Position numbers and translations under genes: made by a program. A DNA stretch of 64,000 nt from an uncultured Bacilli bacterium (lineage in GTDB: Bacteria > Bacillota_I > Bacilli_A > RF39 > UBA660): positions 77,429 to 141,428 of the forward strand of contig CAKOHK010000001.1 of assembly GCA_934085595.1 (NCBI GenBank), written 5' to 3'. This document shows, piece after piece, positions 2,083-59,038 of this stretch (its first letter is position 1; each line of letters starts with the position of its first letter). Below the pieces are notes generated by a model. That model was not told where the DNA came from. It worked only from the letters and a program-made list of their open reading frames with translations, and did no database searches.

Positions 2083-3759
2083 TCAAAAAAGAGCAGAATA
2101 TTCTTGAAATAGTTTCTCCATCTCTTCATGACTAATATCACTTCTTGCCATCATTTCTTCTAAACACTTTTTTCTATCAGAAATATCATTATCTTTTTCA
2201 TTTGTCATCTTATCATCAAAATATTCACTATATCCTTTGTCTATCTTTTTAACTTCTTTGTTTTCAAATACTATTAGAGAATTAGTAAGATTTTTAAGTA
2301 AATATCTATCATGTGTCGCGATTAATATACTTCCAGGAAATGTTATTAAAGCATTCTCTAGTTCTATTTTATTTTCTAAATCCAAATGATTTGTAGGCTC
2401 ATCAAGCACAAGTAAATTATATTCTTCTAGTATAATTTGTACTAGTTTAATTTTCATCCTTTGTCCTAAGCTAAGACTACTTATTTTATTCTTAAATATA
2501 CTTCTATCTACACCCATATTAACTAAATTGCTAAAGAAAAATTGTTTTTTATTAGCGTCAAATCTACTAGCAAACTCATTTATAGTTAAGCTATCATCTA
2601 TATCAAAAACATCTTGACTCATATACGCCATTTTAAGTGAAGGTGTTTTCCATATACTTCCGGTAGTAGATTCTATTTCTCCATTAATAATTTTAATGAG
2701 CGTACTTTTACCACATCCATTTGGCCCAATTAATCCAATTTTATCATTTGACTTAATTTCAAAATTAGCATTTTCAAAAATAAGTTTTCCATCATATTCT
2801 TTGGAAACATCGGTAAGTTTTACTAAAGCATTAGCTCTCAAATCTTCCCCATTAAAGAAATATTTTATATCTTTACTTTCATAAGGTTTATCTATAAAAT
2901 CTTCTCTTAACTTTTCAAGTCTTTTCTTTTTATTTTCAGCAGAAGAAGATAGTTTGGCTGCTTTTCTTTGAGCATTGGTTTTAACACCTTTTATTTTAGA
3001 ATCAGACCTCATTCCACCTTGTCTGCCAGCTTCTCTTTCTCCTTTATTAGACCATTCATTAAGTTTCTTAATTTCATTTTTAATTTTTTTATCTAATTTC
3101 TGTTCATTTTCATATCTACTTTTCATCTTAGCAAGTTCTTTTTCTTTTTCTAAAGCATAATAATCATAATTTCCATTATATATATTTATTTTTCCTCTAT
3201 CAATTTCAATAATTTTATTTACAGTTTGATTTAAAAAATATCTATCATGAGAAACAACTATTAAAGTACCACTATAATTTTTAATTATATTAATTAAATA
3301 ATCTATACTTTTAATATCAACATGATTAGTAGGCTCATCCATTATTAATATTGAGGGGTCTTTTGATAATATATACGACAAAGCTATTTTAGTTTTTTCT
3401 CCACCACTTAAGTTTTTAAGTCTTTCTGCAGAATAATCTATATTTTTTGTAATTCCAAACTCACTATTTAGTTTTAAAAACCTAGTTAAACCTTCTTTAT
3501 TTGTACACATATTTAAAAAGTCTTCATTTGTATACTCAGTTATTTGTTTTAAGTACCCTATTCTATCATCAGAAACAATAACACTTCCTTCATAATCATC
3601 TATATCACCACATATAATTTTGATAAGCGTACTTTTACCGCATCCATTCTTCCCAATAATACCTATTTTATCAGAAGAATTAATACTCAAAGATATATTA
3701 TCAAGAACTAAATTATCATTAAAACTCTTAGATAGATTAGTAATTTCAATAATCCTCAT
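2083..3759 (-). CDS. ABC-F family ATPase (tandem ABC domains, no TMD; ribosome-associated/possible antibiotic-resistance type)
   Basis: Two Walker A motifs (GKNGCGKST, GPNGCGKST) and two signature motifs (LSGGEKTKIAL, LSLGQRMKIKL). A K/E/R-rich inter-domain linker of ~80 aa is present and there is no membrane domain. AGGAGG RBS lies at 3766-3771. Confidence 0.85.
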   Translation of the reverse strand: MRIIEITNLSKSFNDNLVLDNISLSINSSDKIGIIGKNGCGKSTLIKIICGDIDDYEGSVIVSDDRIGYLKQITEYTNEDFLNMCTNKEGLTRFLKLNSEFGITKNIDYSAERLKNLSGGEKTKIALSYILSKDPSILIMDEPTNHVDIKSIDYLINIIKNYSGTLIVVSHDRYFLNQTVNKIIEIDRGKINIYNGNYDYYALEKEKELAKMKSRYENEQKLDKKIKNEIKKLNEWSNKGEREAGRQGGMRSDSKIKGVKTNAQRKAAKLSSSAENKKKRLEKLREDFIDKPYESKDIKYFFNGEDLRANALVKLTDVSKEYDGKLIFENANFEIKSNDKIGLIGPNGCGKSTLIKIINGEIESTTGSIWKTPSLKMAYMSQDVFDIDDSLTINEFASRFDANKKQFFFSNLVNMGVDRSIFKNKISSLSLGQRMKIKLVQIILEEYNLLVLDEPTNHLDLENKIELENALITFPGSILIATHDRYLLKNLTNSLIVFENKEVKKIDKGYSEYFDDKMTNEKDNDISDRKKCLEEMMARSDISHEEMEKLFQEYSALF

Positions 3760-3819
3760 AGTTCCTCCTTATCTTAATTTGTCTTAATTATAACAAAAAA
3801 TTGACTTAATAGCCAATCT

Positions 3820-4002
3820 TTAATTAATTTTATTTACTAATTTTAATGAGTATTTGTTATTAACTAATTCTTTTCCCATAAATCCTACCGCAGGATAATT
3901 CATATAATCTTTACTTTCATTAGTAATAAGACTATACATAGTTTGATTAATATCAAACTCTTTAATAGGTTTCTTTCTATGATATTTTATTTCATTTTCC
4001 AT
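3820..4002 (-). pseudogene. Internally deleted remnant of the acyl-CoA synthetase gene (first ~44 codons fused in-frame to last 16 codons)
   Basis: The 73-aa ORF 3820..4041 has an N-terminus identical to ORF 208..2046 and its last 16 aa match that ORF's C-terminus. At nucleotide level 3789-3878 matches 176-265 and 3879-4064 matches 1867-2070. The junction falls in the shared 9-bp microhomology TTTCCCATA. Confidence 0.8.
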
Positions 4003-4238
4003 AATATACCCATTCAAAACATAGTTAGTATGATACCACATTTTTCATATTTTTCAATCTTACCCAAAATTAAAATGATACATATAGCAAAACAATATCA
4101 ATTTAAACTCTAAAATGTTATTTATGCTTACTAAATTGCTTTGCTCATACTTATCAAAATTCTTTATAAAACAATATATATTTCTAAAGTAAAAACCACC
4201 ATTAGTCAACAATAATGGTGGCTTTTACTTAAATATTT

Positions 4239-6251
4239 TTACTTTTGATTATACACAATAAGTTTATGTTGTGCTCTTGTTATCGCAACATAATATAAAT
4301 ATCTCTCTTCATCATTAAACTTATTATCTTTTTCAGTATATATAATAACACTATCAAACTCTAAACCCTTAGCCATATAAACTGGAACTACAATAAACTT
4401 TCTATTAAACTTCATCACAGTATTATCTATTTTACTAATACCCTCATCCTTAAGTAATTCATATATTTTATTACATTCTTCTTGATTCTTAGTAATAATA
4501 GCCATGCTCTTTCCATATTTATTACACTCTTTAATATCATCTATAAGTTGATTATATAAATTATCTTCTTTCTTTTCATCAACTGGTACATTATTATCTC
4601 TCCTAATAGCTGTAACATGATTTAAATGAAGTACTCTATTACTATATTCAACTATTTCTTCACTAGAACGATATGTTTTAGTAAGTTCTATATATTTACT
4701 ACTAGGTAATATCTTGCATATATCTTCAAGACTATCATATTTATAATATGGATTAATAGTTTGATTAATATCTCCAAGTATAGTATAACTAGCATTTCTA
4801 AATATCTTACTAATTAGTTTTAATTGTCCTAAAGTATAATCTTGTGCTTCATCTATAACAATTTGTTTAATAGAAATATTATATTCATAACCATATAGTT
4901 TACATTTCATATATACATATAAACAAGCATCATCATAATATATTAATTTCTTATTATCTTTTATATTACTTATATCTTTATTTATATAACTAAACTTACT
5001 ATTAAAGAAATTAATATATACATCAGCTAAATCTTTAGGTAAGTTTAATCTATCATATAACTCTTTAGATATCTTTTTACTTTTAGATGTTCTTCCATTA
5101 AAATTATTTTCGCTTATTTTTTCAACCATAGTTTGTAATCTACTACCAAGAGGTAACTTACTATATCTTACATTAAGCATATAATCTAGTTCACTCTTAG
5201 TATAACTATAATCTCTTGTAAATAAATCATCATTAAATCTAATATTCTTACATAAATCATCTATATATTTATCTATATCATCATATACTCTATCACTTTG
5301 TTTATATTTAATAAAATCAAAATCACATGTACCACTATAACTTCTTTCTATGAATGCCGTAAACGTTTCTACATCATAAAACTCTTTTATCTCTGTACTT
5401 AAAAAATCATTAATAGTTGTCTGCATAGTATTATTTTCACCTAGTTCTGGAAGTACATTACTTATATATTCTGAAAATACTTTATTTGGTGAAAATATTA
5501 ATATATTATCACTTCTTAAATTATCTATTCTATATAATAAAAATGCTATTCTATGAAGTGCTACACTTGTTTTACCACTACCCGCTATTCCTTCTACTAT
5601 TAAGTTTCTATCTTCTGTATTTCTTATAACTGTATTTTGTTCTGCTTGTATTGTATTAACAATATTTTTCATTTTTTCGCTACTAGCACTTGCTAATACT
5701 TCTTGTAATAATTCATCATCTATATTAGTATTATTATCAAAAATATGTTTAAGTTTCCCGTCTTTAATAGTATATTGTCTTTTAAGTGTTATCTCACCCT
5801 CTATTTTACCAAGAGGCGCTATATAACTTGCTTTACCTACTTCATAATCATAAAATAAATTACATATAGGGCTTCTCCAATCATATACATAGTAGTTATT
5901 ATTATCATCTTCTACATGAGTAATACCAATATACACATCATCCTTATTTATACCATCAGTAAATATAATTCTTCCAAAGTAAGGATTTCCTTGTATTCTA
6001 TAAAGTTTTTGTAAATATTCGCCCTTCTTCATCATCATGCTAACTTCAAGATCACTATCACTCATCATAGTTTTAAGTTCAGTAGGATCCATATCAGACC
6101 TATTATCCCACATGAATCTCTTAAACTCTTCTATCTTATCTTCTCTATCATATAGTTCTTGTCCTAGAAGAGATATCTTTTTTCTAACCAAATTAATGGT
6201 ATCTTCAAGTCTAGTTTCTTCAAGTTTTACATCATTTTTTGATAAACCCAT
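4239..6251 (-). CDS. helD: HelD-like UvrD/Rep-family helicase (DNA helicase IV, RNAP-associated)
   Basis: Walker A GIAGSGKT and Walker B VIDEAQDY are present, together with UvrD-like C-terminal motifs and an N-terminal coiled/HelD-like region. The start is chosen at MGLSK (6251), which has a GGAGGTG RBS; the ORF track extends to 6308. Confidence 0.75.
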   Translation of the reverse strand: MGLSKNDVKLEETRLEDTINLVRKKISLLGQELYDREDKIEEFKRFMWDNRSDMDPTELKTMMSDSDLEVSMMMKKGEYLQKLYRIQGNPYFGRIIFTDGINKDDVYIGITHVEDDNNNYYVYDWRSPICNLFYDYEVGKASYIAPLGKIEGEITLKRQYTIKDGKLKHIFDNNTNIDDELLQEVLASASSEKMKNIVNTIQAEQNTVIRNTEDRNLIVEGIAGSGKTSVALHRIAFLLYRIDNLRSDNILIFSPNKVFSEYISNVLPELGENNTMQTTINDFLSTEIKEFYDVETFTAFIERSYSGTCDFDFIKYKQSDRVYDDIDKYIDDLCKNIRFNDDLFTRDYSYTKSELDYMLNVRYSKLPLGSRLQTMVEKISENNFNGRTSKSKKISKELYDRLNLPKDLADVYINFFNSKFSYINKDISNIKDNKKLIYYDDACLYVYMKCKLYGYEYNISIKQIVIDEAQDYTLGQLKLISKIFRNASYTILGDINQTINPYYKYDSLEDICKILPSSKYIELTKTYRSSEEIVEYSNRVLHLNHVTAIRRDNNVPVDEKKEDNLYNQLIDDIKECNKYGKSMAIITKNQEECNKIYELLKDEGISKIDNTVMKFNRKFIVVPVYMAKGLEFDSVIIYTEKDNKFNDEERYLYYVAITRAQHKLIVYNQK

Positions 6252-6427
6252 ATTCACCTCCATACACAAAAAACGCTTTTTATTTTCAAAAAAACGTTTA
6301 TTTATCAAATACTATTCTAGCAGTCCTATCAAATGTATCATATTTATATTAATATTACAAGATATTTAAAGGAAAAAGTATAAATAATTATTTAATTGAT
6401 TTTATATTTATAAACTATTACTATATT

Positions 6428-6612
6428 TGTGCTAATAATAAATATGCTTCTTTACCATCAGTATATTTTAACTCTAACTTTGTAGTATTCACATTAATAG
6501 TCTCTACTACATCATTACCACTTATAGTTAAGCTAAATATACATAAGTAAGTACTATTGTTAACAAAAATACTGACAATAACCCACTTGTAAATATAAAC
6601 TTTTTATCTTTC
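6428..6612 (-). pseudogene. Frameshifted/truncated N-terminal remnant of the TasA-like variable-protein family
   Basis: The reverse strand reads MMKDKKFIFTSGLLSVFLLTIVLTYVYLA*, then ...SGNDVVETINVNTTKLELKYTDGKE in another frame. A 1-nt deletion relative to the paralogues (YAYFSLVVSGNDV) causes the frameshift. The family's upstream promoter and 5'UTR sequence is retained at 6613-6680. Confidence 0.7.
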
Positions 6613-6675
6613 ATCATATTTTCCTCTATTCTCTATTAGTACTACAATTTAACTAATTATACATTTCAATGTCAA

Positions 6676-13121: not shown

Positions 13122-14570
13122 TTATTGAATAACAAAAGGATTATCAGTGCTTCCATCACCTGATATATATTTGACATTAGTATCAAGATATACAGACTGA
13201 CGCAATCCGCCGCTGCGGTTCGTACCAGTGTAGTCCACACCACCGTTGCTGAACACACCCAACGCACCAGCTGAGACATACGAAATAGGCGACACGGCCC
13301 AAAACCAATTACTTGTATCTAATAGCCAGTTAGTACTTTTACATGTTTCACTTCTATAGTCTGTATTATATGGTGAAGAACCACTATCATCATAACCTTT
13401 TTTAGTATCATCATTATAACATGCGCTACTTGCATACATATAATCACTTGGATATATTAATGCTACTTTCCCATCCCATGTTTGTTTATTTCCATTATGT
13501 ACATTAGTACTTCTTTCTTGAGTATATATTTCTTTTGTAGTTCCATATCCAACATTATTTGTCCACACAACACTCCCAAGGTACCATTTTGTACTGCTTA
13601 TTTGACCTTTTGCTTTATCTGTTAAGCCATTGCTTGCATATGTACCTGTTCTATTGTAATACTCTCCTCTATTTAATGTGGTCATTAATGTAGCGGTCGT
13701 CCAGTCATTATAGTTTGTTGCTGAATTAGTCTCGTTCCATACTGCTGTTCCGATGCTTTCCCTTACTATTTTGACTTTATTTTCTCTCGTGTATGTTCCA
13801 TCACCATTAGGTGTTTCTGCTTCAAATACTCCAATTATTCTCCACACTCCAGTTTCCCCATTAAATGTTATATAGTTATTTGGAGTTTTACCCTGGTATC
13901 TATATTCTGTTGTTGCATAGTTTTGATTGCCTGATGCTGTTTGGTCTATTTTTGTTAAACCTAATGTACTATAATTATCTATTAGATAATTTGTAAGTAT
14001 TACTTTCTTACTACTCTCTGCTGCCGCAAGAACTCCATAGAACTTTTTACCTTGGTTATAATTTTGCGCTTTATCTTCATAATTTATAAACTCTATAGTT
14101 ACTGTATAAGTGTGTTTCTCACCCGGCAATATTTTCACATTTTCTTTATATGGATATATTACTTTATTTGTTTCTGCGGTTACTTCTGAAGTTTGTGGGA
14201 TAATCACATTTTCAGTATTATCACATGTTCCACCAGTAGCTCCACTACTTATACATGTACTTCTTATAACAAGTTCCTCTTTTTGAATCTCATTATAAAG
14301 CTTTTGCCATCCTAAAGCATAATATGCTTCTTCATTACCAGTATTTTCTACAGTTATAGTTTTAGTAGTTGTCCATTTTGGCTCAATACTATCTACTTTA
14401 ATTTCTTTTCCATCAGTATAAATTAATTCAATCTTAGTAGTACTTACATTTATAGTTTCTGCTACATCATTACCACTTACTACTAAGCTAAAATATGCAT
14501 AAGTAATTCCGGTAATTATTAAAAACACACTTGTAAGTATTACTGCTAATAATATTTTTTTATCTTTCAT
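13122..14570 (-). CDS. Secreted hypervariable protein, paralogue 1: TasA/camelysin-like N-terminal domain (SipW-type signal peptide) + conserved C-terminal domain ending in a DGR-type variable repeat
   Basis: 482 aa. The N-terminus MKDKKILLAVILTSVFLIITGITYAYFSLVVSG resembles the SipW-cognate AYFSD class. The block ...ITVENTGNEEAYYAL...DKAQNYNQGKKFYGVL parallels camelysin (...FLLQNSGSL...GKDQNIFQGDSLNLEW). The C-terminal ~40 codons (approx 13185-13305) are GC-rich and differ from the paralogues mainly at positions that are Asn codons in the 51567..51797 copy. Confidence 0.8.
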   Translation of the reverse strand: MKDKKILLAVILTSVFLIITGITYAYFSLVVSGNDVAETINVSTTKIELIYTDGKEIKVDSIEPKWTTTKTITVENTGNEEAYYALGWQKLYNEIQKEELVIRSTCISSGATGGTCDNTENVIIPQTSEVTAETNKVIYPYKENVKILPGEKHTYTVTIEFINYEDKAQNYNQGKKFYGVLAAAESSKKVILTNYLIDNYSTLGLTKIDQTASGNQNYATTEYRYQGKTPNNYITFNGETGVWRIIGVFEAETPNGDGTYTRENKVKIVRESIGTAVWNETNSATNYNDWTTATLMTTLNRGEYYNRTGTYASNGLTDKAKGQISSTKWYLGSVVWTNNVGYGTTKEIYTQERSTNVHNGNKQTWDGKVALIYPSDYMYASSACYNDDTKKGYDDSGSSPYNTDYRSETCKSTNWLLDTSNWFWAVSPISYVSAGALGVFSNGGVDYTGTNRSGGLRQSVYLDTNVKYISGDGSTDNPFVIQ

Positions 14571-29902: not shown

Positions 29903-31636
29903 TTAATTTATAACAAATGGATTACTCTTAGTTCCATCACCACTTACATAGTTTACCTTAGTATTAAGATACACAGACTGACGCACGCTACCATAGTTAA
30001 TTGAGCTGGTGTAATCCACATTACCATAAACGTTCACAAACATTGCATTACCCGGATGGTTAGAATTTAGTGACACAACCCAATACCACGCTCCAATAAA
30101 TAACCAATTAGTATTAATGCATTTTTCATTTCTATAATCTTTGCTTGAATCAGAAACATTATTAGCTTTCATTGTATTGTCATTATAGCATGCACTACTT
30201 GCATACATATAATCACTCGAATATATAAGTGCTACTTTCCCATCCCATGTTTGTTTTTTGCCACTATGTACACTTGTGCTTCTTTCTTGAGCGTACATTT
30301 CTTTTGTATTACCATAACCAACATCAGAAACCCACGTTCCATTTCCTAAATACCATTTTGTCATGCTTATTTGACTTTTTGCAGTACTTGTTAAGCCATT
30401 ATTTGCATATGTACCCACTTTATTGTAGTAATCTCCATTATTTAACAACTTCATCAGTGTTGCGGTTGTCCAGTCATTATACGATTTTGTAGAGTTCCAT
30501 TCAATCAATCCAATTCTATCTCTTACTATCTTTACCTTATATTCTTTTGTATATCCACTTCCATTTGGTGTTTCTACTTCAAAAACTCCAATAATTCTCC
30601 ACACTCCAGTTTCATCATTGAATGTTATATAGTTGTTTGGAGTTTTACCTTGATATCTATATTCTGTTGTAGCATAATTCTGATTACCTGTCGCCGTTTG
30701 TGATATTTTAGTTAGACCAAATAGTGTATAATTATCTTTTAAACAATTAGCTAATGTTTTACCTGTGCATATGCTTTCAAGAGTACTTTTCCAGTGTGCA
30801 TACAAAGTATGATTAGTATTAGTTGTAACTTTAGTATTTGCATTAACTTTTACTCCACCATTTAAAGAAGTGTACCAGCCCATAAAATCATATCCGCTCT
30901 TAACTGGAGTACATAACTCACCATAGTTTAATCCATATGATACGTCTTTAGAACTACAGCCTGATCCTCCATTATTATCATATGTTAGCTTAACTTTATT
31001 TTCTATAAAATTGATAGTACATTTTTCATCTTTAACAATATTCTTAAAGGTAATCTTATCATTATTAACTATTATATTTGTGCAAGTACTACTATAGTAT
31101 TTATATCCAGTTTTAGGAGTAACTGTAAATATAGCATCTCCTCCATCATAAACAAAAGCATATGCTGGACTTACAGTTCCTTTATTTTCATCACTACTTG
31201 ATACTTCAAGTAAATTATAAGGCACAAACTTCCAAGGATCTTTATAAGTACCTCTTCCTATAATTTTAACTTCTTTCTTAATATACTCTGTTACTCTAAT
31301 ATTACTATCAGTACTTGATTCATTATTTATCACTTTTCCATCAATAGTAAAATAAGGCAATGATGTAACTAAATATGAAGAATCATCTGTTTTAGATGAG
31401 TTCACTTCATATATATTTATAAGTCCACCAGTATTAAATCCATTTACATATGATATAGTTTTATTGTTATATCCAAATGGTATTTTAGATGTATTTATTA
31501 GATATGCTATATTTTTTCTATTATTTTTTATATAGTTATTACTTATATCTTTACCTTCATCAAAACTATAAGCGTTAATATTACTAATAAACATAAATAT
31601 ACATAAAAAACTAATTATTTTAAATACTCGTTTCAT
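29903..31636 (-). CDS. Secreted hypervariable protein, paralogue with alternative N-terminal region and the family's C-terminal domain + variable repeat
   Basis: 577 aa with a different signal peptide (MKRVFKIISFLCIFMFISNINAYSF) and a ~290-aa N-terminal region. From ...LFGLTKISQTATGNQNYATTEYRYQGKTPNNYITFN onward it is homologous to the family's C-terminal domain. The C-terminus ...GNAMFVNVYGNVDYTSSINYGSVRQSVYLNTKVNYVSGDGTKSNPFVIN aligns to the TR-like copy. Confidence 0.75.
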   Translation of the reverse strand: MKRVFKIISFLCIFMFISNINAYSFDEGKDISNNYIKNNRKNIAYLINTSKIPFGYNNKTISYVNGFNTGGLINIYEVNSSKTDDSSYLVTSLPYFTIDGKVINNESSTDSNIRVTEYIKKEVKIIGRGTYKDPWKFVPYNLLEVSSSDENKGTVSPAYAFVYDGGDAIFTVTPKTGYKYYSSTCTNIIVNNDKITFKNIVKDEKCTINFIENKVKLTYDNNGGSGCSSKDVSYGLNYGELCTPVKSGYDFMGWYTSLNGGVKVNANTKVTTNTNHTLYAHWKSTLESICTGKTLANCLKDNYTLFGLTKISQTATGNQNYATTEYRYQGKTPNNYITFNDETGVWRIIGVFEVETPNGSGYTKEYKVKIVRDRIGLIEWNSTKSYNDWTTATLMKLLNNGDYYNKVGTYANNGLTSTAKSQISMTKWYLGNGTWVSDVGYGNTKEMYAQERSTSVHSGKKQTWDGKVALIYSSDYMYASSACYNDNTMKANNVSDSSKDYRNEKCINTNWLFIGAWYWVVSLNSNHPGNAMFVNVYGNVDYTSSINYGSVRQSVYLNTKVNYVSGDGTKSNPFVIN

Positions 31637-36929: not shown

Positions 36930-38351
36930 TTATTCTATAACAAACAGATTATTACTACTACCATCACCTGACATGTATTTGACACTAGTATCAAGATATA
37001 CAGACTGACGCACGCCGCCGGAGCTGAAACTCGTATCGCCCGTATTCACCTTACCGGAATTGTTCACATACCTCGCACCGTCCGAACTGCTAGAACTAGG
37101 CGACACGGCCCAAAACCAATTATTCGTATCTAATAACCAGTTAGTACTTTTACAAATTGAATCATCATAGTTAAAACCTATTGTTCCATTATTGTAGCAA
37201 CTGCTACTCGCATACATATAATCACTTGGATATATTAGTGCTACTTTTCCATCCCATGTTTGTTTATTTCCACTATATACATTAGTACTTTTTTCTTCTT
37301 GATATGTTCCTTGACAATCCTTACTACTACTTCCATAAGTAACATTTCCTAAGTACCATTTTGTACTACTTATCTGATTTTTTGCATTTTCTGTTAAACC
37401 GTTGCTTGCATATGTACCTGTTCTATTGTAATACTCCCCACTATTTAATGTGGTCATTAATGTAGCGGTCGTCCAGTCATTATAGTTTGTAGCTGAATTA
37501 GTTGCATTCCATGCTGCTTTTCCTATTGTATCTCTTACTATTTTAACTTTATTTTCTTTTATATATGTTCCGTCACTTTGTGGTGTTTCCACTTCGAATA
37601 CTCCAATTATTCTCCATACTCCTGTTTCACCATTGAACGTTATATAGTTGTTTGGTGTTTTACCTTGATACCTATATTCACTTGCTGCATAATTTTGATT
37701 ACCTGTTGCTGTTTGGTCAATTTTTGTTAAACCTAATGTACTATAATTATCTATTAAGTAGTTTGCAAAAGTTTGAGTTTGTTCTTTTCCACTACTTTCT
37801 GCTGCTCCAAGAACTCCATAGAATCTTTTGCCTTGATTATAATTTTGTGCTTTATCTTCATAATTTATGAACTCAATAGTTACAGTATAAGTGTGTTTCT
37901 CACCTGGTAATATTAATACATTTTCTTTATACGGATATAATACTTTATTTGCTGCAGCATTTACTTCTGATGTTTGAGGGATAGCTACATTGTCTGTACT
38001 TGAGCAAGTCCCTCCTGTTGCTCCACTACTTGTACATGTACTTCTTATAACAAGTTCTTCTTTTTGAATCTCATTATATAGTTTTTGCCATCCCAAGGCA
38101 TAATATGCTTCTTCATTACCGGTATTTTCTACTGTTATAGTTTTAGTAGTTGACCATTTAGGCTCAATATTATCTACTTTAATTTCATTTCCATCAGTAT
38201 AGATTAATTCTATTTTAGTAGTACTTACATTAATAGTCTCTGCTACATCATTACCACTTACCACTAAACTAAAGTATGCATAAGTAATTCCTGTAATAAT
38301 CAAAAATACACCTGTAAGTAATACTGCTAATAATATTCTTTTATCTTTCAT
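36930..38351 (-). CDS. Secreted hypervariable protein, paralogue 3 (TasA-like N-domain + C-terminal domain with variable repeat)
   Basis: 473 aa, ~85% identical to paralogue 1 outside the C-terminal variable block (~36993-37113). That block is GC-rich: ...SPSSSSSDGARYVNNSGKVNTGDTSFSSGGVRQSVYL. The gene has its own promoter TTGACT-N17-TATAAT (38379-38407) and an AGGAG RBS. Confidence 0.8.
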   Translation of the reverse strand: MKDKRILLAVLLTGVFLIITGITYAYFSLVVSGNDVAETINVSTTKIELIYTDGNEIKVDNIEPKWSTTKTITVENTGNEEAYYALGWQKLYNEIQKEELVIRSTCTSSGATGGTCSSTDNVAIPQTSEVNAAANKVLYPYKENVLILPGEKHTYTVTIEFINYEDKAQNYNQGKRFYGVLGAAESSGKEQTQTFANYLIDNYSTLGLTKIDQTATGNQNYAASEYRYQGKTPNNYITFNGETGVWRIIGVFEVETPQSDGTYIKENKVKIVRDTIGKAAWNATNSATNYNDWTTATLMTTLNSGEYYNRTGTYASNGLTENAKNQISSTKWYLGNVTYGSSSKDCQGTYQEEKSTNVYSGNKQTWDGKVALIYPSDYMYASSSCYNNGTIGFNYDDSICKSTNWLLDTNNWFWAVSPSSSSSDGARYVNNSGKVNTGDTSFSSGGVRQSVYLDTSVKYMSGDGSSNNLFVIE

Positions 38352-49747: not shown

Positions 49748-51463
49748 TTACTCAATCACAAAAGGATTACCACTAGTTCCATCACCGCTTACATATTTTA
49801 TATTAGGACTAAGATATATCGAAGGACATAAACCAGCTGTAGAACTTTTAATTACAAGACCATTTATCAAATTACCGACATTATTTACGTATAATGCACC
49901 AAGTTTATCCACGGAAACAGGTGTTACACTCCAGTATCGTAATCCACTAAATAACCAATTAGTACTTGTGCATGTAGAATCAGAATAACCATTTCCCAAA
50001 ACTCCACTATTATAACATGTACTACTTGCATACAAATAATCGCTTGGATACATTAATGCTACTTTTCCATCCCATATTTGACTATTACCATTATGTACAC
50101 TTGTGCTTCTTTCTTGTACATATAAATCTTTTGCACTTTTATTGTTATCTCCATTTCCTAGATACCATTTTGTTGTGCTTATTTGGCTTTTTGCTTCAAT
50201 AGTTAATCCATTACTTAAATACGTACCGGTTCTGTTATAATAATCACCAGAATTTAATGTTGTCATTAACGTTGATGTAGTCCAATCGTTGTCGCCTTCA
50301 CTACCATTTTCATTCCAAGCTATATTTGTTTCAATACTATCTCTAATTATCTTTACTTTATTTTCTTTTGTATATATTCCATTCCCGTTAGGTGTTTCAA
50401 CTTCAAATACGCCTATTATTCTCCAAACATTATCTTCCCCATTAAATGTTATATAGTTATTTGGAGTTTTACCTTGATATCTATAGTCTACTGTTTCATA
50501 ATTTTGATTACCAGTTAGGGCTTGATTGATTTTAATTACATTTAAACTTTCATAATTATCAATTATATAATCTGACAATTTATAATCTAAATTAATATTG
50601 GATATCTTTTGATTATCAACAATAACATCAAGCCGTATATTTTTACTTATCGGTTTAACACTATAAGATTCATCAGATTTAATTATCTCGTTTTCTCCAT
50701 TAAAAAGTTTTATTTGAGTAGTAGTAATATCGTCATTATTGTCAACTGTTAAAGTATGATTACCAAGTTCTACATCATTAAATATTACTGTACCATTTTC
50801 ATCTGTTGTTCCAGTCATTGGTGTTGAATGTAATGTTACCTTGCTATTTGGAATAACAGTTCCATCAGTGTTTTTAACATTAAGTGTAAGATTATATGTA
50901 TTATATGCTTCAACAAGTCCTAAAACTCCGTAGAACTTTTTACCTTGATTATAGTTTTGTGCTTTATCATCATAATTTATAAACTCTATAGTTACCATAT
51001 AGGTATGAGTTTCTCCTGGTAATATTAGTGCTGCTTCTTTATATGGATACAATATCTTGCCAGATTCTCTGGTTACCTCTGCCGTTTGCGGAATAACAAC
51101 ATTATCTGTGTTATCACACGTACCACCTGTAACTCCACTACTTGTGCATGTACTTCTGATTACTAGTTCTTCTTTTTGAATCTCATTATATAATTTTTGC
51201 CATCCTAAAGCATAATATGCTTCTTCATTACCAGTATTTTCTACAGTAATTGTTTTAGTAGTAGTCCAGTTAGGCTCAATACTATCTACTTTAATTTCAT
51301 TTCCATCAGTATAAATTAATTCAAGTTTAGTAGTACTTACATTAATAGTTTCTGCTACATCATTACCACTTACTACTAAGCTAAAATATGCATAAGTAAT
51401 TCCAGTAATTATTAAAAACACACTTGTAAGTATTACTGCTAATAATATTCTTTTATCTTTCAT
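49748..51463 (-). CDS. Secreted hypervariable protein, paralogue 4 (TasA-like N-domain + inserted CnaB/CarboxypepD_reg-like domain + C-terminal domain with variable repeat)
   Basis: 571 aa. An extra ~115-aa segment NVKNTDGTVIPNSKVTLHSTPMTGTTDENGTVIFNDVELGNHTLTV shows the TDENG...G.YTL pattern of Cna-B/carboxypeptidase-regulatory-like domains. The variable block is ~49811-49935 (…VDKLGALYVNNVGNLINGLVIKSSTAGLCPSIYL). The promoter TTGAAA-N17-TATACT lies at 51490-51518. Confidence 0.8.
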   Translation of the reverse strand: MKDKRILLAVILTSVFLIITGITYAYFSLVVSGNDVAETINVSTTKLELIYTDGNEIKVDSIEPNWTTTKTITVENTGNEEAYYALGWQKLYNEIQKEELVIRSTCTSSGVTGGTCDNTDNVVIPQTAEVTRESGKILYPYKEAALILPGETHTYMVTIEFINYDDKAQNYNQGKKFYGVLGLVEAYNTYNLTLNVKNTDGTVIPNSKVTLHSTPMTGTTDENGTVIFNDVELGNHTLTVDNNDDITTTQIKLFNGENEIIKSDESYSVKPISKNIRLDVIVDNQKISNINLDYKLSDYIIDNYESLNVIKINQALTGNQNYETVDYRYQGKTPNNYITFNGEDNVWRIIGVFEVETPNGNGIYTKENKVKIIRDSIETNIAWNENGSEGDNDWTTSTLMTTLNSGDYYNRTGTYLSNGLTIEAKSQISTTKWYLGNGDNNKSAKDLYVQERSTSVHNGNSQIWDGKVALMYPSDYLYASSTCYNSGVLGNGYSDSTCTSTNWLFSGLRYWSVTPVSVDKLGALYVNNVGNLINGLVIKSSTAGLCPSIYLSPNIKYVSGDGTSGNPFVIE

Positions 51464-51542
51464 TCTATGTACTCCTATTCTCTATTAATAGTATACTTTA
51501 ATTAAATCTATATTTCAATATCAAAAAAAGCTAAGCATAATA

Positions 51543-51797
51543 AAAAAATGAACATAAGTTCATTAATTATTGTATCACAAATGGATTATCAGTAGTCCCA
51601 TCACCACTTATATAATTTATGTTAGTGTCCAAGTAAACGGAGGTACGCACACCGCCAGAGCTGTTGTTCGTATTATTGTTGTTCACATTACCGTTGTTGT
51701 TCACATTCATCGCATTGTTCGAATTGTTAGAACTAGGCGACACGGCCCAAAATACAAGACTTGCTAAGGGGCTAACCCTATTAAAGGCAAATGCCAT
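51543..51797 (-). other. Putative DGR template repeat (TR): non-genic, Asn(AAC/AAT)-rich copy of the family's 3' end including terminator
   Basis: Homology to the target 3' ends starts at FWAVSP (~51762) and runs through the stop (51567) and the ATGAAC/GTTCAT terminator (51543-51563). The TR encodes WAVSPSSNNSNNAMNVNNNGNVNNNNTNNSSGGVRTSVYLDTNINYISGDGTTDNPFVIQ, with 15 Asn among the 40 variable-block codons. The preceding 15 codons are not homologous and there is no RBS or promoter of its own. Confidence 0.6.
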
Positions 51798-51829
51798 TTA
51801 ACCATTGTTTGTTAATATTTAATAACTTG

Positions 51830-51859
51830 GTGCCCGCACAGTTCCACCGTGCAGGGCAC
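51830..51859. promoter_or_regulatory. GC-rich nested hairpin between target 5 stop and TR (no U-tract)
   Basis: The sequence is GTGCCC-GCAC-AGTTCCACC-GTGC-A-GGGCAC. It is about 68% GC in a ~25% GC genome. It lies 17 bp downstream of the paralogue-5 stop (51876) and 33 bp upstream of the TR-like copy. Confidence 0.6.
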
Positions 51860-51875
51860 TTTACATTTTCTCTTT

Positions 51876-53393
51876 TTATTCTATCTCAAACGCCTTTTCT
51901 GTAGTACCATCTCCTCCTATGTACTTTACGCTGGAATCAAGATATACGGACTGGCGCAAGCCGTTGCCGCTGTAGTACGTAACACTGTTGCCCACAAGAC
52001 CGTCGCTGTTCACAACCATCGCACGGCCCGAACCGGTAGAACTAGGCGACACGGTCCAAAACAAATTATTTGTATCTAATAACCAGTTAGTACTAGTACA
52101 AGTTTCACTTCTATAATCCGTATTATATGGTGAAGAACCATTAGAGTCATACGCTTTTTTAGTATCGTCATTATAACATGCACTACTTGCATACATATAA
52201 TCACTCGGATATATTAATGCTACTTTCCCATCCCATGTTTGTTTATTTCCACTATGTACACTAGTACTTCTTTCTTGAGTATATATTTCTTTTGTAGTTC
52301 CATATCCAACATTACTTGTCCACACTACATTTCCTAAGTACCATTTTGTACTACTTATCTGATTTTTTGCATTATCTGTTAAACCGTTGCTTTCATAATT
52401 ACATATCGCTGTTTCGCTTGTTGTAGTATCATATCCAGTTGAACAAGCAAGCTGTGTATAGCCAGAAGTCCTATTATAGTATGGTCCGGTATTTAACATT
52501 GTCATTAAAGTTGATGTTGTCCAGTCATTGTAATAATTTAATGAACCCTTACGATCCCATGCTACTCCTCCTATTTTATCTCTTACTATCTTTACTTTAT
52601 TTTCTTTTGTATATGTTCCGTCACTTTGTGGTGTTTCCACTTCGAATACTCCGATTATTCTCCATACATTTTGTTCTCCATTAAATGTTATATAGTTATT
52701 TGGAGTTTTACCTTGATATCTATATTCTATAGTGTTATAGTTTTGGTTACTTGTCGCTGTTTGTTCTATTTCTGTTAAACCTAATGTACTATAATTATCT
52801 ATTAAATAGTTTGCAAGAGTTGGTAATTTCTTAGTGCTTTCTGCTGCTCCAAGAACTCCGTAGAACCTTTTGCCTTGATTATAGTTTTGATGTTTATCAG
52901 TGTAATTTATAAACTCTATAGTTATCGTATAAGTATGAGTTTCTCCTGGTAATATTAATACATTTTCTTTATATGGATATAATACTTTATTTGCTGTAGC
53001 ATTCACTTCTGATGTTTGAGGGATAATTACATTATCAGTACTATCACATGTTCCTTCTGTTACTCCACTACTTATGCATGTACTTCTTATAACAAGCTCA
53101 TCTTTTTGAATCTCATTATATAGTTTCTGCCATCCTAAAGCATAATATGCTTCTTCATTACCTGTGTTTTCTACTGTAATAGTTTTAGTAGTTGTCCAAC
53201 TCGGCTCTATGCCATTTGCTTTAATTTCTTTTCCGTCTGTGTACTTTAGTTCTATTTTAGTAGTACTTACATTTATAGTTTCCGCTACATCGTTACCACT
53301 TACTACTAAACTAAAGTATGCATAAGTAACTCCAGTAATTATTAAAAATACACTTGTAAGTATTACTGCTAATAATATTCTTTTATCTTTCAT
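51876..53393 (-). CDS. Secreted hypervariable protein, paralogue 5 (TasA-like N-domain + C-terminal domain with variable repeat)
   Basis: 505 aa. Variable block ~51939-52060 (…SPSSTGSGRAMVVNSDGLVGNSVTYYSGNGLRQSVYL). Promoter TTGACA-N18-TATAAT at 53421-53450. The RBS AGGAG precedes ATG 53393. Confidence 0.8.
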   Translation of the reverse strand: MKDKRILLAVILTSVFLIITGVTYAYFSLVVSGNDVAETINVSTTKIELKYTDGKEIKANGIEPSWTTTKTITVENTGNEEAYYALGWQKLYNEIQKDELVIRSTCISSGVTEGTCDSTDNVIIPQTSEVNATANKVLYPYKENVLILPGETHTYTITIEFINYTDKHQNYNQGKRFYGVLGAAESTKKLPTLANYLIDNYSTLGLTEIEQTATSNQNYNTIEYRYQGKTPNNYITFNGEQNVWRIIGVFEVETPQSDGTYTKENKVKIVRDKIGGVAWDRKGSLNYYNDWTTSTLMTMLNTGPYYNRTSGYTQLACSTGYDTTTSETAICNYESNGLTDNAKNQISSTKWYLGNVVWTSNVGYGTTKEIYTQERSTSVHSGNKQTWDGKVALIYPSDYMYASSACYNDDTKKAYDSNGSSPYNTDYRSETCTSTNWLLDTNNLFWTVSPSSTGSGRAMVVNSDGLVGNSVTYYSGNGLRQSVYLDSSVKYIGGDGTTEKAFEIE

Positions 53394-58791: not shown

Positions 58792-58825
58792 AATAAATAA
58801 AAAAAGAAGTACAACACTTCATTAT

Positions 58826-58915
58826 TTAATCACAAATGGATTACTAGCGCTTCCATCTCCACTTACATATTGTGCTGTATCATTACCGCTTACTACTAAA
58901 CTAAAATATGCTTGT
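58826..58915 (-). pseudogene. Internal-deletion remnant of the hypervariable-protein family (start region fused to last ~17 codons)
   Basis: 58830-58880 matches the family's 3' end (ttatttaatcacaaatggattactagcgcttccatctccacttacata). 58881-58920 matches the 5' coding region (…tgctgtatcattaccgcttactactaaactaaaatatgc). The reading frame is broken (MKDTSIF*). The junction falls in ACTTAC microhomology. Downstream is a degenerate terminator hairpin GAAGT-ACAAC-ACTTC. Confidence 0.65.
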
Positions 58916-59038
58916 ATCTTTCATATTATATATGCTTCTATTTTCTATTTAAATTATATTTTAGTTATAATCACATTTCAAGGTGCAAATAAAAACTTGT
59001 AAAACACATTTATCATATATCTTACAAGTAATATTATT

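Follow-up and report, generated by a model that had tools for sequence, protein, structure and literature searches.

Background

In the diversity-generating retroelement (DGR) of BPP-1, direction is given to the transfer from template repeat (TR) to variable repeat (VR) by a (GC)14 element, a 21-bp sequence for mutagenic-homing initiation (IMH) plus an adjacent stem-loop in the target, and the template counterpart of the IMH, IMH*, differs from it at few positions (PMC3240598; PMC5703328). In a survey of 372 DGRs nearly every element had a putative IMH/IMH* pair, the two members of which were sometimes identical; GC-rich inverted repeats accompanied only 34% (PMC5758913). The present analysis concerns a TR on the minus strand of a stretch of 64,000 nucleotides from an uncultured Bacilli bacterium (contig CAKOHK010000001.1; 'the window' denotes this whole stretch), which comes from the chromosome of a spore-forming gut Firmicute, is rich in AT (26% GC) and carries a family of five paralogous secreted-protein genes (473–577 aa), referred to here by the coordinates of their ends (13122, 29903, 36930, 49748 and 51876). 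A first-pass annotation, made from the letters alone, had read the difference between this TR and its targets at the 3' boundary as an IMH/IMH* pair; such boundaries are already predicted in almost every DGR, and the finding as stated adds little. The reading that we favour, with moderate confidence, is that this is the 3' end of a DGR-type TR, that the boundary difference is a product of history (a mosaic) and that the element is probably dormant, a directional function of the difference being unproven.

Comparison with described retroelements

Like the BPP-1 element, the locus has an A-rich TR, VRs at the 3' ends of target genes and TR/VR homology that ends at a GC-rich motif, and in the window strain template and targets disagree over the 21 nt that follow. 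Unlike in BPP-1, however, where the GC element is 14 bp of G/C only, the motif (GGCGGNNTGCGY) has 12 nt with 75–83% G+C, interrupted by T or A, within a 26% GC genome; template and targets differ at 9–10 positions per 21 nt here and at 5 in BPP-1 (PMC3240598; PMC5703328; PMC5758913); neither avd nor brt lies beside the window TR; and the template–target distinction is not conserved among sister elements. The TR 3' flank, critical for priming in BPP-1, is here a lineage-variable gene tail plus terminator rather than a conserved spacer, and no other part of the locus is conserved so little (67–77%). Screening for a BPP-1-like pairing of TR-downstream RNA with the target 21-mer gave no match better than shuffles. 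The only GC-rich hairpin begins 94 nt after the boundary of one VR, and behind the other two VRs and the TR stands one and the same AT-rich terminator, a point of little weight given that only 34% of surveyed DGRs have such an inverted repeat (PMC5758913).

The imperfect TR–VR repeat after the A-to-N region, with its GC-rich start, agrees with the surveyed DGRs (Wu et al. 2018, PMC5758913), as do, for some of these, identical IMH and IMH* (here in lineages L006/L008) and the presence of non-A-to-N differences and indels; the surveyed elements were found through their reverse transcriptase (RT), whereas no RT lies within reach of the window TR. Dispersal of several paralogous, putatively C-type-lectin-like targets over tens of kb of a bacterial chromosome (in the window, at 13 kb, 37 kb and 52 kb) resembles the chromosomal multi-target DGRs of the Treponema denticola type, or 'Lineage 4', of Wu et al., although there the TR lies beside the RT and only the targets are remote, whereas for at least 12 kb to one side of the window TR, and 51 kb to the other, there is no RT.

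Template repeat and variable repeats

The interval 51640-51690 is indeed the 3' end of the TR, as first annotated, with coordinates and TR sequence correct; its reverse complement reads ...AACAGCTCTGGCGGTGTGCGTACCTCCGTTTACTTG. In the TR, 15 AAC/AAT codons lie among fixed codons between TTTTGGGCCGTGTCGCCTAGTTCT and GGCGGTGTGCGT, and on the minus strand ACCTCCGTTTACTTGGAC directly follows the end of the TR (Table 1). The truncated family-gene 3' end that holds the TR sits between the genes ending at 51876 and 49748, and the TR has 44% GC inside the 26% GC window.

Mismatches between TR and VR are concentrated at template adenines, giving three statistically supported VRs of the window TR among the five paralogues (51876, 36930 and 13122), and the same A-specific pattern recurred in five VRs from relatives, with p between 1e-3 and 4e-9 over all eight VRs. 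Non-A sites differ too, at 4–15% between TR and VRs, and non-A mismatches occur in every TR/VR pair (3–21; best 3–9 per VR against its closest TR). The 24-nt 5' end of the TR is identical to the 36930 VR and has 1–2 differences from the other two VRs, and the 13122 VR is 3 nt shorter than the TR. The remaining two paralogues showed no adenine bias: the 29903 copy is an old, drifted copy with a target-type boundary, while the 49748 region is nearly invariant among 14 cluster members and is not a VR.

Table 1. Features of the template locus, of the paralogous genes and of the left end of the window, followed by the TR 3' boundary in each lineage type.
Feature	Location	Strand	Sequence or observation
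TR core	51645..51752	(-)	TTTTGGGCCGTGTCGCCTAGTTCT, 15 AAY (Asn) codons, then GGCGGTGTGCGT; aligns with three VRs, A-specific mismatches
GC-rich 3' boundary motif of TR	51645..51656	(-)	GGCGGTGTGCGT; last stretch common to TR and VRs
21 nt after TR boundary, IMH*-equivalent position	51624..51644	(-)	ACCTCCGTTTACTTGGACACT; identity counts against target-type copies
TR tail, copy of family-gene 3' end	51567..51644	(-)	In frame to the family stop (TSVYLDTNINYISGDGTTDNPFVIQ, stop)
76-codon open reading frame (ORF) spanning TR	51567..51797	(-)	MAFAFNRVSPLASLVFWAVSPSS...; metagenome protein calls
Terminator, AT-rich hairpin plus T-run	51541..51563	(-)	ATGAACTTATGTTCAT TTTTTTT; after TR tail
Leader, intergenic block of 123 nt	51753..51875	(-)	Between stop codon of 51876 gene and TR
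GC-rich inverted repeat	51830..51859	(-)	GTGCCCTGCACGG-TGGAA-CTGTGCGGGCAC; predicted stem
VR of gene 51876-53393	51954..52061	(-)	A-site mismatches 20/34, non-A 9/74, p = 1e-6
Target-type 21 nt after 51876-gene VR, IMH-equivalent position	51933..51953	(-)	CAGTCCGTATATCTTGATTCC
VR of gene 36930-38351	37008..37115	(-)	A-site 15/34, non-A 9/74, p = 4e-4
Target-type 21 nt after 36930-gene VR	36987..37007	(-)	CAGTCTGTATATCTTGATACT
VR of gene 13122-14570	13200..13304	(-)	A-site 22/34, non-A 8/71, p = 4e-8
Target-type 21 nt after 13122-gene VR	13179..13199	(-)	
Homologous region of gene 29903-31636	29960..30085	(-)	No A-bias, p = 0.19; target-type boundary (CAGTCTGTGTATCTTAAT)
Homologous region of gene 49748-51463	49805..49936	(-)	No A-bias, p = 0.41; boundary CCTTCGATATATCTTAGT (CPSIYL)
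Direct repeats flanking ABC-F gene	160-268 / 3772-3880 and 1862-2059 / 3857-4054		
TR 3' boundary	Window		CGT ACC TCC GTT TAC TTG GAC
TR 3' boundary	L001, L128		CGT ACC TCT GTA TAT CTT GAT
TR 3' boundary	L127 type		CGT CAG TCT TTA TAC CTT GAT; CAGTCTTTATACCTT
TR 3' boundary	L006-L008		CAT CAG TCT GTA TAT CTT GAT; CAGTCTGTATATCTTGAT, target version

The non-A bases of the 36930 VR fit the TR type of sister lineages (AAT TCC ... AAT ACG GGC; L001, L127 and L128) better than the window TR, from which they depart at 9 positions, compared with 3–6 for the sister-lineage TRs, which points to past TR–VR recombination or to a second, lost TR allele. GC content was 56–58% in the VRs, 44% in the TR and 26% in the genome (intervals as in Table 1), and the constant flanks retain GC-rich codons (GCC GTG TCG CCT; GGC GGC).

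The 76-codon ORF that spans the TR has no obvious ribosome-binding site and is therefore probably not a real gene; it is reported as a protein in human-gut metagenomes, identical to P0001 (100%) and 66–80% identical to P0002-P0006. The leader contains AATGGCATTTGCCTTTAATAGGGTTAGCCCC, and its GC-rich inverted repeat starts 94 nt downstream of the boundary of the 51876-gene VR; in the L127 and L132 lineages this repeat carries uncompensated mutations. The terminator that follows the TR tail also follows the 13122 and 36930 genes. A consensus scan for promoters and terminators around the TR gave nothing above shuffle level, the terminator having gone unlisted because it has fewer than three G-C pairs, and no Rfam family matched within 49.0–54.5 kb.

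Conservation along the locus is uneven. The leader is 93–100% identical among lineages, compared with 81–87% for the upstream coding DNA. Taken as one block, the VR tail, leader and TR 5' end (51876-51956, 51753-51875 and 51726-51752) are 91–100% identical among lineages, the adenine-rich part of the TR 78–82% and the TR tail 67–77%. Where lineages differ, the changes are grouped within the hairpin (L127) or immediately behind it (L006/L008).

Boundary sequences in the window

TR/VR homology stops after GCGT/GCGC in all three VRs, so that the boundary stands directly 3' of the last variable adenine, at the position expected for an IMH. The first-pass annotation held that all five targets share one 3' boundary. 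The target-type string TGCGYCAGTCYGTATAT does have three exact occurrences (13188-13204, 36996-37012 and 51942-51958; chance expectation 0.03) and one more with a single mismatch (29969-29985, GTGTAT), but the fifth paralogue (49748-51463) departs from the target type, its boundary reading TTATGTCCTTCGATATAT (LCPSIYL), also written CCTTCGATATAT (CPSIYL). The four target-type copies are, moreover, paralogues of shared ancestry and not four independent confirmations.

Over the first 21 nt after GCGT, the TR matches the target-type copies at 11–12/21 positions (55%) and the copies match one another at 16–21/21 (88%), whereas over the remaining 54 nt of the tail the corresponding identities are 73% and 68%. 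The window version of the TR 21-mer (ACCTCCGTTTACTTGGACACT) was found in its exact form in the window strain only; the tail of the window TR also includes GTGCGTACCTCCGTTTACTTGGAC.

Boundary variants in related lineages

TR loci of several lineages (designated by L numbers) were recovered from contigs of the TR-ORF protein clusters, with two more from a metagenome DNA scan. Wherever a contig extends upstream of the TR, the order from upstream to downstream is the 51876-type stop, the 123-nt leader with its GC-rich hairpin, the TR, a gene tail and a terminator. One lineage is without a TR and another has a VR fused to its TR. In most sister TRs (all but L001) 9 nt are missing that are kept in their own VRs, and TRs with a target-like 3' end have 8–10 Asn codons rather than 15.

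The claim that the Thr version of the boundary (RTSVYL) belongs to the template alone did not survive this comparison. The six TR variants divide evenly between R-T-S (three) and [H/R/C]-Q-S (three), so that the target version is itself borne by sister-lineage TRs (CAGTCTGTATATCTT); the difference between TR and target shrinks from 9–10/21 in the window to one codon in L001/L128, 2 nt in the L127 type and 0–1 nt in L006-L008. Conversely, 119 full-length family representatives comprised 55 with RQSVYL, 10 with CQSVYL, about 35 with RP..YL and 4 with RTSVYL, and Thr-version VRs or genes occur in L131, L132 and L135. L132 combines a CGT ACT TCT boundary with a diversified VR whose tail and hairpin are native, the TR being deleted there just after the leader hairpin, and L135 carries the Thr boundary on a paralogue that is neither Asn-derived nor diversified. 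The two boundary variants are thus mixed regardless of Asn-richness (L132, L135, L006-L008), the very pattern that had been named in advance as refuting the proposal, and the distinction between template and target is not retained among related elements. Thr is enriched among the TR ORFs (3/6 against 4/119, p = 0.002), but the TRs are orthologous and not independent, and the enrichment may reflect a single event.

What stands of the proposed TR-to-VR flow is the A-specificity of the mismatches, the stop of homology at the GC-rich motif and the difference of the window TR at the IMH/IMH* position, to which the sister lineage L128 adds a pattern that fits a transfer tract ending at the motif: a lineage-specific AGC immediately 5' of the motif is common to its TR and VR, which part company immediately 3' of it. 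What falls is the idea that the boundary difference is a constant mark of template versus target.

The P0132 cluster, a paralogue type (RPTVYL) absent from the window, has two discrete haplotypes of the 'VR' region, LIAQSEGTLYINGV and LIARNDGTLYIAGV, which occur on otherwise identical proteins; this is dimorphism rather than hypervariation and suggests allele exchange by recombination.

Origin of the template tail

The boundary difference had been considered hard to explain by ordinary paralogue divergence. This is wrong: the target version is the family consensus, present even in a non-target paralogue. The changes in the TR tail are mainly synonymous, 11 codons differing from the 13122 tail synonymously and 4 non-synonymously. 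The five codons after Thr/Gln have all changed silently (TCT>TCC, GTA>GTT, TAT>TAC, CTT>TTG and GAT>GAC). Purely silent change accumulates in translated genes and so argues for a coding history, whereas selection acting on a template that is not coding would not produce it. A single step separates CAG (Gln), and likewise ACY (Thr), from CCN (Pro), which is common in the wider family, a relation that would fit old paralogue divergence.

Exchange of tails at this junction recurs in the family, in genes as well as in TRs. One VR occurs with two tails (P0030/P0043; cluster 4); the L131 and L135 genes end in the tail and terminator that follow the TR in L006; and a 36930-like tail is present on the TRs of L001, L127 and L128, those of L001 and L127 abutting Zip, the gene that follows the 36930 gene in the window. 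On these grounds we infer that the window TR is a mosaic, its 3' part having been supplied by a coding paralogue; the donor step is an inference, as no paralogue with the exact 21-mer was found.

Rearranged or unusual family loci were seen in relatives. At 11360-11620 of L131 a full-length gene has a VR running into a TR-type tail and terminator (a VR–TR fusion), 1809-2286 of L132 is the TR-deletion locus and 11430-11730 of L135 holds the Thr-boundary paralogue. Gene order around family members varies by lineage (GtrA-gene-TR-Zip, GtrA-gene-HAD, YlbE-gene-TR-paralogue-PolC), and the family therefore marks synteny breakpoints.

Reverse transcriptase and activity

The DNA covered comprised about 75 kb of the window genome plus syntenic pieces of relatives, and within it neither an RT beside the TR nor Avd in a cassette was found. 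Pfam detected no RVT or Avd domain in the window ORFs that were scanned (47 of the 63 with 100 aa or more), and there was no RT-like YxDD context in the six frames of the 64-kb window and no RT or Avd in the 10 kb beyond its right end. Likewise, neither was found within 3.5–7.8 kb of the L127 TR, around the paralogues in L131, L135 and L136, or in viral contigs (DNA scan and protein scan), and no RT among the neighbours in L129 and L133. A contig scan with the degenerate TGGRCCGTGTCGCCYRNTTC returned 114 chance matches in GC-rich genomes, none of them related.

The VRs also appeared frozen. The 51876-gene VR was identical in all assemblies reached via the TR ORF, a route unbiased for the VR, and in nine contigs carrying the exact protein; the L127-type VR was identical in four samples; and within 90% clusters the VRs were constant while the rest of the protein diverged by 4–15%, so that the assemblies give no sign of ongoing VR diversification. 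The lack of an RT near the TR, the frozen VRs and the accumulated non-A mismatches together suggest that the retroelement is dormant or dead in the sampled lineages.

Interpretation

We propose that a DGR-type system once rewrote the C-terminal, putative C-type-lectin-like domain of the secreted-protein family. Its TR is housed in a truncated family-gene 3' end made up of a conserved leader, the Asn-codon template, the GC-rich motif, a gene tail, a stop codon and a terminator. Transfer from TR to VR would have ended at the motif, which would make the next 21 nt the place for an IMH in the target and an IMH* in the template. The target version of the boundary is the family-wide coding consensus, and the tail of the window-strain TR would have been acquired from a coding paralogue by recombination at the junction. 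The sequence difference is best explained by this history and less well by a dedicated directional signal.

Several observations weigh against this proposal. The excess divergence of the TR in the window strain is limited to the 21 nt after the motif (55% against 88%), the rest of its tail not being unusually divergent (73% against 68%), and the window TR is the most intact of the TRs (15 Asn codons, without the 9-nt deletion), so it might be argued that a working IMH* survives in this TR alone. CAG and CTT, codons that are unusual at a genome GC of 26%, are retained in the target-type 21-mer, which hints at constraint at the nucleotide level, and the strong conservation of the leader suggests continuing selection on the TR locus. 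Neither the window nor the recovered loci yielded a donor paralogue with ACCTCCGTTTACTTGGAC. As for dormancy, an RT may lie elsewhere in the genome, outside the DNA covered, and consensus assemblies cannot show low-frequency VR variants.

Under the first-pass model, applied to the window strain, CAGTCYGTATATCTTGAT is a working IMH and the IMH* of the TR has been selected to diverge and thereby blocks rewriting of the template, the sister TRs with the target version being degenerate products of VR-into-TR conversion or of self-homing. The confinement of TR divergence to exactly 21 nt after the GC-rich motif speaks for this model, as do the A-richness of the undeleted window TR, the highest of all the TRs, beside the 8–10 Asn codons of TRs with a target-like end, the stop of TR/VR sharing at the motif in L128, the enrichment of Thr in the orthologous TR ORFs and the precedent of BPP-1, where (GC)14, the 21-bp IMH and a stem-loop set direction (PMC5703328; PMC3240598). 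Nevertheless, the five codons after Thr/Gln changed silently only, the L001 and L128 TRs have retained ACC and are eroded as much as the CAG-type TRs, and L132 has a VR with the TR-type boundary. Neither is there a GC-rich inverted repeat beside the 21-mer (the nearest being 94 nt off, at one VR, with AT-rich terminators at the others) or complementarity of TR-downstream RNA to it, and no RT was found while the VRs are frozen. On balance we regard the model as tentative and rather unlikely.

A related possibility, to which we give similarly little credence, is an orphan TR served in trans, in episodic bursts, by an RT remote in the chromosome or on a transient mobile element. A TR with the conserved 123-nt leader is present in at least five lineages, and no neighbouring RT was seen. 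If this were so, loss of the IMH* through VR–TR recombination would explain the loss of adenines from sister TRs.

In silent-cassette recombination systems, such as Neisseria pilS/pilE, a promoter-less partial gene copy adjoins expressed paralogues and modules are exchanged at conserved junctions. An RT-independent cassette of this kind, with a silent A-rich copy and C-terminal modules varied only by homologous recombination or gene conversion, would account for the frequent tail and module swaps, the VR–TR fusions, the collapsed gene remnants and the breaks in synteny where family members lie. The present template is adenine-coded, however, and mismatches that are restricted to template adenines and follow AAY codon periodicity cannot arise by recombination; the VR sequences are, furthermore, unique to each lineage and not reshuffled cassettes. 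This explanation is accordingly improbable.

Least credible, to the point of being very improbable, is the absence of any retroelement, with the 'TR' a decaying pseudogene fragment made A-rich by AT-biased mutation: it is a fragment without the 5' part of the gene, in a 26% GC genome with other pseudogene remnants of the family, but mismatches strike A sites and not T sites (20/34 against 4/26; 22/34 against 3/24), which excludes AT-biased decay, and the 44% GC of the TR, its 93–100% conserved leader and the identity of its 24-nt 5' end with the 36930 VR also stand against it.

A difference between template and targets in one genome, counted over paralogous targets, is therefore not independent evidence of function, and it was the sister genomes that revealed the boundary difference as a lineage-specific mosaic. 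Notwithstanding this, the locus is a reasonable natural case for the study of DGR decay or of servicing in trans, in a widespread human-gut bacterium, and offers a template with no RT close by, TR–VR fusions, deletions of the TR, tails swapped where homing would end and VR haplotypes that are frozen.

Other features of the window

The window includes genes for PolC, MurG, FtsQ, DivIVA, SpoIIIAH and a GerE-type protein, nearly all on the minus strand. The C-terminal domain of the target proteins had no match in Pfam or PDB sequence searches, and in a Foldseek search with a full-length target model the N-terminal beta-sandwich domains dominated the matches.

Two remnants of the family were observed on the minus strand. 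At 58822-58935 a collapsed gene has a start reading MKDTSIF followed by a stop, a frameshift and then ..YFSLVVSGND-TAQ-YVSGDGSASNPFVIK and a stop, its N-terminus fused almost directly to the C-terminal tail. At about 6440-6617, upstream of a UvrD-like helicase gene (4239-6308), lies an N-terminal family-gene fragment (MMKDKKFIFTSGLL...SGNDVVETINVNTTKLELKYTDGKE) with a frameshift and a stop. Finally, the ABC-F gene (2083-3759) is flanked by two direct repeats of 109 and 198 nt that are 95–96% identical (Table 1).
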